From Isurus oxyrinchus (Eukaryota), in assembly GCA_026770705.1 (NCBI GenBank), contig JANJGN010000016.1:111848001-111912000 (forward strand): 64,000 nucleotides of DNA. Direction: 5' to 3'. Positions 48,946 to 60,447 of this stretch are shown piece after piece (within the stretch, counting starts at the first letter, position 1; each line of letters opens with the position of its first letter). The translations under genes were made by a program, and so were the position numbers. Under the pieces are notes generated by a model. That model saw only the letters and a program-made list of their open reading frames with translations, was not told the DNA's origin and searched no databases.

Positions 48946-49018
48946 CTCTGAGAGGAAGGTCTGTGCAGATTTCTGTGCCCCGACATGAAGCAGATATTCG
49001 TACACGTACAGAGCCAAC
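48946..49018 (-). CDS. SSBP3: SSBP3 coding exon 2 ([24 protein letters not shown], LisH/LUFS domain)
   Basis: Acceptor ccgcag|G, donor GAG|GTAAC, 73 nt, phase-compatible with exon 1. Canonical SSDP LUFS peptide. Confidence 0.96.
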
Positions 49019-49091
49019 CTGCGGGCGAAGGAGACACAAAAGAAGGAGCCGGTTACCAGGCTTTCCATTTATATTACAGCGGGAATGCAGA

Positions 49092-49252
49092 AAGAGAGAG
49101 AGAGAGAGAGCAAAGGGGGGTGGGGGGGGGGGAGAGCTGGTGGTGCTGGTGGTGGTGGTGGTGGTGCTGGGGTGTGTGTGTGTGTGTGTGTGTGTTGGAG
49201 GGGGTTGTTGGTGTTGGTGTTGGTGGTGGTGTTGCTGGTGGTGGTGGTGGGT
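49092..49252. repeat. Compound microsatellite in intron 1: (GA)n, poly-G, (GGT)n, (GT)n
   Basis: Directly visible. Confidence 0.9.
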
Positions 49253-49636
49253 TTGTCAGCGAGCGGCGCTGCACCCCCAAGCCAGCCCCCGCCGGACACA
49301 ATGTTTCATTCAGTTTCTTTGCAGAAGCGGAAACCCCACAAGCGCTTGTGCGACTCAGAAAGAAACAAATAATTATAACCATCACGGCAACCAGAAGAGA
49401 TTTAATTCCCCGGGATCTGCTGCGGCGGCCGCTGTCCGGCCCCGGGGAAGCCCAGTTAAAAAACGGGGGGGGGGGGGGGGGGAGGGAAGGAGGGAGGAGG
49501 AGGAGGGGGGGGGGGGTTGTTGGGAGGGAGGAGGGGGGGGAGGGGGAGAGGTGGTGGTTGGTGGTGGTTGGTTGGGGGGGGGGGGGGGAATTTTTCCTGG
49601 ATGGGCATAGACAACAAAAACACCATTAAAACTTAC

Positions 49637-49692
49637 TTTTCTCGAGCCTGCCCGTCCGAGGGCACCGCCGAACCTTTGCTTTTGGCGAACAT
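49637..49692 (-). CDS. SSBP3: SSBP3 coding exon 1 (MFAKSKGSAVPSDGQARE-K)
   Basis: ATG at 49692 on the minus strand (context gagcATGt), 56 nt, then donor AA|GTAAGT. The peptide matches the SSBP3-type N-terminus MFAKGKGSAVPSDGQAREK rather than the SSBP2 start MYGKGKSNSS. Confidence 0.93.
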
Positions 49693-49959
49693 GCTCTTTT
49701 TTTTTTGGGGAGGGAAAGGAGCTTGCCTTGGCGTCGGGCACCTGTCAAACCATCAAACCCGGGGCGACCCCATCGCCGCGTCCGCGCACGCAACAAACGC
49801 ACAACAACGCGCAACAACGCAGCCCCAGCCCCGGCCCTGGCCCCGCCCCGGCAGCGGAAAGGGCGCGGCCCTCGGCCCCCACCTCCGGCGCCGGACCGGC
49901 CAATAGCCGGCCGAGCTTGCCCGTCACTCTCCCTTCCCTCCCCCCCTCCCCTCCCCACC

Positions 49960-50228
49960 GGCCGCCGCCGGCCAATTGGTAGCCTTCCCTGCCGTGTCAA
50001 TCAGCCACGGGTCCCTCCTCTCTCCCCCCTCCCCCCCCCCCACCGCCGCCGGCCAATTGGTAGCCTTCCCTGCCGTGTCAATCAGCCACCGGTCCCGCCC
50101 CCCACCGCTGCCGACCAATTGGTAACCTTTCCTGCCGTGTCAATCAGCCACGGGTCCCTCCTCCCTCCCCCCCCCCTCCTCGCCGCCGGCCAATTGGTAG
50201 CCTTCCCTGCCGTGTCAATCAGCCACGG
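49960..50228. repeat. Four copies of a ~45-bp module ccgccggccaattggtagccttccctgccgtgtcaatcagccac with variable C-rich linkers
   Basis: CCAATTGG starts at 49972, 50053, 50115 and 50190 (periods 81, 62, 75). Copy 3 has a few substitutions. Confidence 0.95.
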
Positions 50229-53200
50229 AGTCGCTCCCCACCCCCCCCCCGCCACCGCGCGCCTCCGCCAATCAAGCCCAAGCCGGGGTGGGCGGGAGTT
50301 CCCCCCCACCCCCCCCCCCCCAGCCGGAGTGACTGGCCAGTTTTGCTTACGGAAGAAGGGCCGCGCTGATTGGTCGCCGGCTGAGATACCTCAGCCTGGG
50401 GAGCCTGGAAACCGCGTGCCCAGCAGTTTCCAAAACCCCCTCCCCCTTATGCTATTCCGGGCGAGGGCGGCATTCCCCCTGCTCGGTGGCTGCTGTAAAA
50501 ACCTGGGCCGGAGTGCTGCATAATGTCCAAACAACAACAAAAAAAATTGAACAAAATCCTCTGGTGCAAACGCTCAATTTATTCCCCCCCCCCCCCATAT
50601 CGCATGCATTTTTGTCCCGGTTCAGCCTTGTCAATGTTGCATTTTTTCCCCCCCGTTATTTTCCCGGTGGTAATTGATGTTTTATTGTTACTTAATTAAA
50701 ATGGATTTTTTTTTCTCTGCTTTAACAAAGTCGACCTCCGCCCCCCCCCCCCCCCCCCATCCCCATCCCCTCGGGCAATGAAAAGGAGATGCTAGGTTCA
50801 TACAGAGTTAACTGCAGATCTGTACAAAACCCCCCTTCTGATTACTCGGTTTTAAAATCAATGTTGCAAGGTCCCAACTCAATGAACAAAAAGCCCATGC
50901 AGCGCAAAGCATGTGCTTCAGGTAGAAATACAGCGAGCCGAGAGAATAGAACTGCCACCAAAAAGTCATTCAATATTCGCGATGTTTTAATATCTTTATT
51001 TTACTTATTTATTTATTTTTGGTGTGGTGTTATACACCCGTCTCCCCTTTTTCTTTTAAGACTCGCGCGAATCAAGAGGACGAGAAACGCAACAGTTTGG
51101 AACTGATCGAAACCGGTTTGCATGCACGTGATGGGCAGTAGTTTTCCATTCAGCTGGACCTGGTTCTGCCGACTGCCACTCATTCAGGAATAGACCCGGC
51201 CGGGAACCCAGTAGCGTTTCCCGGATTGCTAAATCCTTCTAGATTGTAACAATAGCGGACTCTTATCCAACAATAGCGAGAAAGCTTGGGCCATCCTATG
51301 CAACATCAATGTGAGGCTTTTAAACCTCTAGACCTACGTTTAACTTCTCGAGTTTTTAGAGTGGTTTAGTAAATTGTTCAGAAACCGGCTTCCTGTGTGC
51401 ATGAAGCATAAACATGGGTAGATCGGTCGGTAATTTCTGCGATCACAACCAGAATTATTGCCTGAATCTATGTGTTTTGCCATGGGTCGGTTTTAAATTC
51501 ATTCGCGTGTGTTTATTCAAGATCTGTTTGTTTGTATATTGCAGTGCATATAACCGTGTAACCATAATGAAATACAAGACATTTAAAACTCTGCTTTACG
51601 AATACTGTTCAGGCAACAGTCAAAACCATCCCCTTCTTAAAGACGTTACAATTCTCAGCTCAGGACTTGAATGAATTACCTTTGTGAATAATTACTTCAA
51701 TTTTTTTAATAAGGCAGAAATCTTGAACCGTATCCTCTTTGGTTTAAACCTGGTGTCAATATTAAATGTACCGCACAAACTGCTCCAATGCATCATGGTC
51801 TGTCTAGACAACTTAAAATGCTTTTTTTTTAAATGGCTTTTAATGCCAGCCTTCGAAGTCTGAATTCGGGGGACAATCAGATGCGTACATACACGAACCG
51901 AAAAATACCGGTTATAATTTGCATAACCACAGTCCATGCAAGCTGCAACTAAATACCAGTACAATACTGTGATGCTATTTTCCAAACTCACCTATTAAAG
52001 TCGTCTAACACAACATTCCATTGAGCTTTAGGGGCAGAAGATTTCTGTTCAACTGCTACTCTGATATGATAAAGACTCTATATCTGGGACTTGGTCTCTT
52101 TTCAGATACTAACAGACGCAAACAGATACGTTTTCAATATTTTGGCTTTATTTCAGATTTTTTGTATTTGCAATTTTTCGTATTGGAGTTCGCAGCAGTC
52201 CTGTAAAGTGGTCAGAAAAAAATCTGAGTACTTTTGTTTTAGTATTGAATAGCAGGCTTAAAGTCCAGTCATGTATCACACAAAGTATTTTAATTGTTCT
52301 TGATCAGCTAAACAATCTTCAGAGTCTTCTATGTGTCATTATTGCTTGATTTGGGTTCTTTTGATTTCATGCTGCTTCTATGTAAGCAGGGTCTCCTAAG
52401 GGATGAGATTTAACCATGGGAGATTGGGGTTCAGCCCATCCTCTCTGGCAGACTCAACAACTTGTTACATGAGCCAGAGATGTGCACAGTATGCCAGGGC
52501 ACTATTATTACTGAATTTGGCTGGCCCAACATTGGAATTTGGAGGGAACCTGTCCCTGGAGCCTGAGACTTTTCATATTTGCTTCCAGATCATTCTTAAA
52601 GAAGTGAGGCTGTAACTGGACAATCAGTTCACTTGTGTTCTGTGAGCAGTTCTAGATGGTTAAATTGCAACAGCATCCCATAACATAAATTTTATGGGTG
52701 TATGCTATGGGAAGAGATTGTGCACTCCAAATGAGACAATTCAAATCTATACGTTGATGAATTTTCTAATAGTTTAATTTTGAAGATTCTTACACATGGT
52801 GTTGGGATTCCACATTTAATAGACTTGAGACCAAGCAAAGAAAAGAAGCATGTGATCTGCAGAATGCATTCATTGGCTAACAAAACAATCACAAATAACT
52901 GGCTGAAAATAAATAATTGACTTATTAATTAATTAATAGATAGCTTTATAGTTCTTTTGACTAAACCTAAACCTCCAACGCATATTCATTGCAGGCAGTG
53001 TATCCATACAGATTTAAAAGCTTTTCACAGGTTCAATGTTAGTTTGTCCTCAAATCCTAAAACTGCTTGTGTAGGTAAATGGAACTTAGAACAGCATTCC
53101 TAAATTCCTTCTTCTGTACAAAATTAATTATTGGTGAGGATGCCAGGTCCCCAGGATATTAAAGGTGGTAATTAGCCCTTTGTCTTCCTCAGGAACATAT

Positions 53201-59675: not shown

Positions 59676-60447
59676 GGCCTCACTACCCACCCCGGTCTCA
59701 CTGTCCACCCTGGCCTCACTACCCACCCCAGACTCACTGCCCACCCTGGTCTCACTGCCCACCCCGGTCTCACTGCCCACCTCGGTCTCAATGTCCACCC
59801 TGACTGCCCAACCTGGCCTCAATGCCCACCCCAACCTCACTGCCCACCCCAACCTCACTGCCCACCCCAACCTCACTGCCCACCCCAGCCTCAGTACCCA
59901 CCCCAGACTCACTGCTCACCCTGGCCTCACTCCCCACCCCGGCCTCACTGCCCACCCCGGCCTCACTGTCCACCCCGGTCTCACTGCCCACCTCAGTCTC
60001 ACTGCCCACCTCGGTCTCAATGTCCACCCTGACTGCCCAACCTGGCCTCACTGCCCACCCCAACTGCCCACCCCGATCTCACTGCCCACCCCGGCCTCAC
60101 TGCCCACCCCAACTGCCCACCCCGATCTCACTGCCCATCCCTGCCTCACTGTCCACCCCGGCCTCCCTGTCCACCCCAGCCTCCCTGCCCACCCCAATCT
60201 CACTGTCCACCCTGGCCTCACTACCCACCCCAACCTCACTGCCCACCCTGGTCTCACTGCCCACCCCAACCTCACTGTCCACCCCAACCTCACTGCCCAC
60301 CCCAACCTCACTGCCCACCCCGGCCTCACTACCCACCCCAACCTCACTGCCCACCCCGGCCTCACTGCCCACCCCGGTCTCACTGTCCACCCCGGCCTCA
60401 CTGCCCACCCCGGTCTCACTGTCCACCCCGGCCTCACTGTCCACCCT
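59676..60447. repeat. 18-bp minisatellite (cctcactgcccaccccgg variants), about 43 units
   Basis: Direct tandem repetition is visible and explains the stop-free ORFs on both strands. Confidence 0.96.

Follow-up and report, generated by a model that had tools for sequence, protein, structure and literature searches.

In Isurus oxyrinchus, the CpG-island promoter of an SSBP-family gene, whose product is a partner of the DNA-looping protein LDB1, contains four near-identical tandem copies of a unit of about 49 nt in which a CCAAT box is combined with a DECA word of the TALE type. The tandem amplification of a single such unit, proposed in an earlier note on this DNA, is supported. The explanation that we favor, and to which we give about an even chance, is that local tandem duplication created a redundant cluster of independent putative PBX/PREP and NF-Y sites that would act without an Sp2 bridge. 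The array is likely an ordinary promoter repeat adding redundant candidate sites and not a special tuning device. All positions refer to the window, namely, the entire stretch of 64,000 nucleotides that was analyzed.

Structure of the array and identity of the gene

On the minus strand, which is the gene strand, TGATTGACA is followed after 15 nt by CCAATTGG at 49972-50003, 50053-50084, 50115-50146, and 50190-50221, and 0 of 100 shuffles reached four matches. The four near-identical modules with a fixed 15-nt gap and periods of 81, 62, and 75 are therefore present in the assembly as originally described; they are arranged head to tail at one locus upstream of the gene, 270 to 536 bp from the ATG at 49692. 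Module 1 (49962-50010, minus strand) has its DECA word at 49995-50003 and CCAATTGG at 49972-49979, with 16 bp from GAC to CCAAT. The corresponding positions, also on the minus strand, are 50076-50084 and 50053-50060 in module 2 (50043-50091), which has one change, at 50090; 50138-50146 and 50115-50122 in module 3 (50105-50153), which has four transitions outside the motifs; and 50213-50221 and 50190-50197 in module 4 (50180-50228). The modules are separated by linker 1 (50011-50042; 32 nt, 75% C on the plus strand), linker 2 (50092-50104; 13 nt), and linker 3 (50154-50179; 26 nt, 77% C). Overall, the linkers are 69 to 77% C on the plus strand and form G runs on the gene strand. Between 49860 and 50340, the inter-module G runs of the minus strand score 2.3 to 3.0 in 25-nt windows of the G4Hunter type, a score by which the gene-strand linkers could form G-quadruplexes. 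Promoter and exon 1 lie in a CpG island (49001-52000) with a CpG observed/expected ratio of 0.57 to 0.95 in 500-nt bins, as compared to 0.28 for the whole window. An 18-bp minisatellite of ~44 copies is found at 59676-60446, 10 kb upstream of the gene.

The DECA core GAnnGAC is present in 4/4 modules, each time as GATTGAC, and in 4/4 modules CCAAT is located downstream on the same strand. The word had been presented as the decamer TGATTGACAG; GAnnGAC is indeed kept, but the modules read TGATTGACAC, with C and not G as the tenth base. Likewise, the claim of a CCAAT core on both strands is correct in that CCAATTGG is a palindrome. The palindrome, however, offers two orientations for one NF-Y and not two seats, since CCAAT boxes less than 19 bp apart are not doubly bound by NF-Y (PMC4889920). 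We propose that one PBX/PREP dimer would occupy each GAnnGAC and one NF-Y trimer each palindrome, in a single orientation. RRCCAAT is the NF-Y flank consensus, and T after CCAAT, as in CCAATTGG, is a poor flank. The opposite-strand box is the more likely orientation; its 5' flank fits RRCCAAT, and it is kept by the older left copy described below. Together, the sites might help to hold the promoter open and add activation in a roughly additive manner.

The coding part of exon 1 (49637-49692, minus strand) corresponds to MFAKSKGSAVPSDGQAREK, with its last codon split by an intron. Three further exons follow; exon 2 (48946-49017) matches SSBP2 structures with an E value of 1e-10 and is identical in all three SSBP paralogs of the genome. 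A Pfam search with the exon peptides returned a weak LisH match only, and the exon-4 peptide had no PDB match. Based on its N-terminus, we take the window gene to be SSBP3 rather than SSBP4. That it is one of the two paralogs other than Ssbp2 is indicated by the promoter of the C4 paralog, which matches the chimaera Ssbp2 row of PMC10735318.

The "Ssbp2 promoter" element in Fig. S32 of PMC10735318 is conserved across bilaterians, is of Precambrian age, and contains CCAAT and RFX words as well; its core is labelled PKNOX/MEIS/TBX/E-box, with one human and one chimaera row. TALE and CCAAT words figure there as old inputs of Ssbp promoters. A proximal TALE/E-box word of the window, TGATGGTTTGACAGGTG (49739-49755, minus strand), is shared with the C4 paralog at p = 0.002. 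The sequence TGATGGYTTGACAGGTG has 3 matches in the genome, 2 of them before SSBP start codons, and a TGACAG core occurs 33 to 59 nt before the ATG in 4/4 promoters compared. The sequence comparison thus places the deeply conserved TALE site at 49739-49755, outside the array, as a paralogous copy of the published Ssbp2 promoter element. A shorter TGACAG core precedes the C12 paralog and is also found in L011, a related promoter on a metagenome contig; the figure in PMC10735318 names Ssbp2 only.

A gene-strand CCAAT is found at -96 in one paralog promoter and at -101 in the other. The window gene, by contrast, has none closer than -287, and its nearest CCAAT on either strand is at -212. Because the proximal gene-strand CCAAT is missing here, the array and its left outlier hold the nearest CCAAT words of the gene, which would raise the prior that the array is used. 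The module was not found at the paralogs or at one distant promoter (p = 0.34 for C12, 0.07 for C4, and 0.30 for L011). L011 has no array in 482 nt and contains a single near-canonical pair; homology between its promoter and the module, suggested by a shared 8-base word beside CCAAT-like letters, was rejected as not significant (p = 0.30). The L011 pair, at 296-330, consists of TGACTGAT followed after 11 bp by CCAAT; it lies on the opposite strand, ~180 nt upstream of the ATG, and resembles the left outlier CCAAT at -212 in place and strand, although this homology is not significant. Being absent from the paralogs and from L011, the array is best read as lineage restricted and not ancient.

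Duplication, motif retention, and DECA-bearing minisatellites

The copies may have been made by slippage at the G/C runs or by unequal exchange there, processes that may still alter linker length. Slippage at the C runs is suggested by the fact that the linkers are C rich and differ in length between the assembly and sequencing runs, while the module is constant; a contig of run X1 has two extra C in linker 3, and the periods in organism B, a close relative, are ~61 and ~71. The favored explanation draws further support from GAnnGAC, which is preserved in each of the four copies as well as in the left outlier. A second reading, which we consider possible but doubtful, shares this origin and holds that the array is a nearly neutral minisatellite, that is, a promoter piece duplicated by slippage at G/C runs whose extra copies have no measurable effect, with the CpG island and the conserved proximal element as the drivers of the gene. 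In favor of this neutral reading, the four copies hardly differ over the entire 49-mer, including its spacer, as is expected of young or homogenised copies. Copy 3 has 4 substitutions (50109, 50114, 50125, and 50130), each a C>T or G>A change. With one further substitution in copy 2 and one in copy 4, 0 changes fall in 68 motif sites and 6 in 128 others. The observation in the earlier note that the changes in copy 3 avoid both motifs is therefore true of their positions, but such avoidance is not significant: it arises by chance with p = 0.17 for the four changes of copy 3 and 0.065 for all six (Fisher 0.074). The deficit at motif positions is a trend only. The neutral reading is also consistent with a spacing outside the known grammar, detailed below, and with periods corresponding to 7.7, 5.9, and 7.1 turns, by which helical phasing of the modules was rejected. 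The four C>T/G>A changes in copy 3 lie in a stretch of 22 bases, and the corresponding letters of organism B, behind the same linker, are unchanged; the cluster is possibly due to chance, a private allele, or an error.

Against neutrality stands, first, the left outlier. The earlier note suspected degenerate copies on both sides of the array. On the left, this was borne out by a local alignment of 49889-49929 (minus strand) to the module, with p = 0.006 in 2,000 shuffles as one of 4 tests, and we consider this segment likely to be an older, diverged module copy. It keeps GAnnGAC and the opposite-strand CCAAT (49900-49904), while the gene-strand CCAAT is missing and the rest has drifted; this retention is the best hint of function that the sequence offers. 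The right-hand candidates did not align to the module beyond shuffles (p = 0.54, 0.07, and 0.27). The segment 50270-50325 on that side, which has a three-base repeat at both ends, is absent from an organism B contig, and the CCAAT at 50268 is thereby lost. The second counterargument is the lack of any other CCAAT near the start codon.

The third concerns the genome-wide distribution of the DECA word, which bears on both sides. At least 28 triple TGATTGACA arrays with unrelated units were identified in the first 100 of 2,427 overlapping matches. The raw triple-array counts (2,427 for DECA, 301 for the reversed control, and 10,050 for a null word) were rejected as a measure of enrichment because they are driven by a few long satellites. 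When distinct arrays were counted on C1 and C3 to C7, 17 contained the DECA word and 5 the null word (p = 0.008 against one null word); this comparison omits C2, where the null list consists of 40 rows of a single array, and C8 onward, to which the null list does not extend. DECA-bearing minisatellites are thus common in the genome, and the excess over the null word argues against the neutral reading. Conversely, the null word forms arrays too, and since TGATTGACA arrays also exist outside CpG islands, amplification of the word does not require a role in a promoter. Of the 10 arrays examined, 5 had a 500-nt window with a CpG observed/expected ratio of at least 0.7 in the surrounding stretch. 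On C22 near 61731300 (L052, 780-1075), ~nine near-identical 32-bp units each carry a DECA-like word followed at 7 bp by CCAAT, in DNA that is otherwise poor in CpG.

A more far-reaching version of events, which we consider unlikely, is that the lineage remodeled the promoter of an essential LDB1 partner, in that it lost the ancestral proximal CCAAT and amplified a TALE/NF-Y unit half a turn off the Sp2 geometry, so that output would be noncooperative and graded by copy number, and the array would be one case of a genome-wide building of CpG-island promoters from DECA minisatellites.

Single locus and copy number

In the 4.98-Gb genome, a pattern of the 32-base core had 4 matches, all 4 at the array locus, and a genome search with 281 nt matched itself only, in a search that skips simple repeats. 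A dispersed TE fragment, which the earlier note had listed among the possible objections, is ruled out by the restriction of the module to this locus. The further objection of an assembly duplication was answered in part: public contigs support at least three modules, so the array is not wholly such a duplication, but none of them shows the variant copy 3. In run X1, the left flank is covered without differences at a depth of 5.8, the flanks range from 5.7 to 5.8, and the module contig has a depth of 18.2. Separate records of this run, with depths of 4.4 to 4.6, read as linkers 1 and 3, which implies at least three modules; the differences that define linker 1 are carried by an 82-nt X1 contig, according to our reading of a record placed on linker 3. 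X1, X3, and X4, which stem from one sample of the same species, contained neither linker 2 nor the four changes of copy 3, and these changes were shown by 0/6 DNA runs compared. Only 76 to 88% of each run was read and some records were lost, so that the gap over linker 2 and copy 3 carries no evidential weight.

In organism B, the module is unchanged over 47 to 50 nt, a stretch over which its contigs are identical to module 1, and run X7 contains linker 2, one base shorter, followed by an unchanged module. This conservation carries little weight because the flanks differ by only 2 substitutions in ~417 bases and 2 to 3 in 230 bases, a divergence at which identity is expected (P = 0.53 to 0.79).

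The earlier note had gone further and suggested a possible copy-number-tunable promoter for a stoichiometry-sensitive LDB1 cofactor. On this view, module number would differ between individuals or species and determine how much of a dosage-sensitive LDB1 partner is made. We regard this as quite improbable. It is compatible with the variation in linker length between species and between assembly and reads, with an X1 contig graph that can be walked with three modules, and with an X3 contig that joins 49962 to 50181, skipping 218 bases or three periods. There is also a precedent in the ABO NF-Y minisatellite, with 1 or 4 units depending on the allele (PMC7187371). However, X1, X3, and X4 come from one sample, and 48 letters of the X3 joint fit either side, which is what a collapsed graph gives; its interpretation as a one-module allele was therefore rejected. 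The X4 module contig, in turn, ends exactly at the linker-2 branch point. Contig depth was rejected as a measure of copy number, the ratios ranging from ~0.5 to 3.2 across runs, and with respect to unit number by allele, contigs assembled from short words are interrupted or collapsed at the module. Furthermore, the influence of the number of units is described as controversial in ABO itself (PMC7187371), and neither "stoichiometr" nor "dosage" appears in the single SSBP/LDB1 paper that was searched.

It is very unlikely that the fourth unit, namely, linker 2 with copy 3, is an assembly error or private allele and that the common array has three units. Such a view would account for the lack of coverage of 50070-50123 in the X1, X3, and X4 records, for the unchanged letters in the X1 record over copy 3, and for a module depth of ~3.2 times the flank, but three unchanged copies and one variant also predict an approximately threefold depth, the runs were read incompletely with some records dropped, linker 2 exists in organism B, and the X4 contig ends at the linker-2 branch point.

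Spacing of the words and comparison with known systems

The published TALE/NF-Y/Sp2 composite is GAnnGAC-11 bp-CCAAT (bioRxiv 10.64898/2026.02.16.706105; PMC7793273). In the models of the preprint, Sp2 stays on at 10 to 12 bp and leaves NF-Y at 13 bp, and its section 22 predicts that gaps above 12 bp result in independent binding without Sp2 association (bioRxiv 10.64898/2026.02.16.706105). The EMSA described there concerns the natural probe only, and the same source reports three DECA-CCAAT pairs in the mouse Sp2 promoter. The modules have 16 bp on the same strand and 19 bp to the opposite-strand box; 16 bp is half a turn off 11 bp. There were 0 canonical pairs in the 908 nt upstream, and none of the 11 CCAAT words in these 908 nt had a GAnnGAC with fewer than 2 mismatches at 10 to 12 bp. 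The identification of the unit with the known PBX-PREP/NF-Y composite is consequently not supported, because the defining 11-bp spacer is absent and the spacing is 16 bp in 4/4 modules. The modules are thus set apart from the known PBX-PREP/NF-Y/Sp2 composite by their spacing. In line with the prediction for gaps above 12 bp (bioRxiv 10.64898/2026.02.16.706105), binding at 16 bp would be independent and without Sp2, as the favored explanation assumes.

The genome-wide search for GCTGATTGACA-N6-24-CCAAT returned 149 matches, as compared to 22 for the control. Among the 100 of the 149 matches listed, 38 had a spacing of 11 bp, while the other spacings averaged 3.2 matches each, and the 16-bp pairs were the four array modules only; that no other listed pair uses this spacing is a counterpoint to the favored explanation. 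A separate set of 44 matches included 13 at 11 bp, 20 at 13 bp, and 6 at 16 bp, the last with the four of the array. Among the 11-bp matches of this set, 5/13 had shared flanking homology and 4/13 were CpG rich, and the 11-bp peak of the genome thus appears to be partly repeat borne. Most 13-bp sites belong to a dispersed family of ~370 bp, 65 to 85% alike (L032-L049), in which the DECA word lies 13 bp before CCAATTGG; in a second family (L012-L014, L016, and L017) the pair has the canonical 11 bp. A preferred opposite-strand spacing was rejected, as there was no peak at 19 bp (119 matches; 9 among the 100 listed, 4 of which are the array modules). In a CpG island near 52801000 on C18 (L021/L054), ~six diverged TGATTGAC words occur, two of them in 11-bp pairs with CCAAT.

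True DECA-CCAAT composites, with cooperative binding of PBX/PREP, NF-Y, and Sp2 of the kind described for the mouse Sp2 promoter, are therefore highly improbable. Both words do occur in the canonical order and strand, and the grammar is used elsewhere in the genome, as the 38 listed pairs at 11 bp illustrate, but the 16-bp spacer, the 0/11 CCAAT words with a near-DECA at 10 to 12 bp, and the modeled departure of Sp2 from NF-Y already at 13 bp (bioRxiv 10.64898/2026.02.16.706105) all argue against them.

A literature search found no SSBP3 promoter repeat at the level of the listings. Several known systems are nevertheless similar in part. The array shares with the DECA-CCAAT composite of the mouse Sp2 promoter the same two words, their order and strand, and the presence of several pairs per promoter. 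The composite has a spacer of 11 (or 10) bp (PMC7793273, PMC6023610), against 16 bp in the array, where, in addition, the CCAAT is palindromic and near-identical tandem units take the place of the diverged sites of the mouse Sp2 promoter that are conserved across mammals. The ABO CBF/NF-Y minisatellite, consisting of four 43-bp units, likewise places four CCAAT-bearing tandem units upstream of a gene, and a copy-number effect was proposed for it as for the array (PMC7187371). The ABO repeat is ~3.8 kb upstream, its binding by NF-Y was shown, and its unit number is allelic (PMC7187371), whereas the array, with its putative factor sites, is located in a CpG island and carries a DECA word. Multi-CCAAT platforms also have several CCAAT boxes per promoter with TALE words nearby; their boxes are spaced in classes of 24 to 28, 35 to 37, and 43 bp (PMC4889920), whereas those of the array are 62 to 81 bp apart and belong to none of these classes. 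The four natural, nearly identical units with their 16-bp spacing provide a ready test of the predicted loss of Sp2 cooperativity at gaps above 12 bp; the array is equally suited to testing whether such repeats add activity per copy. Lastly, the core of the bilaterian "Ssbp2 promoter" (PMC10735318) is matched by the proximal word at 49739-49755 and not by the array; unlike the published element, this copy precedes a second paralog, and a shorter one precedes the third. The Precambrian Ssbp2 promoter core is also found before the other two vertebrate paralogs, and the Ssbp2-type core at 49739-49755 is the site most likely to matter for the gene.
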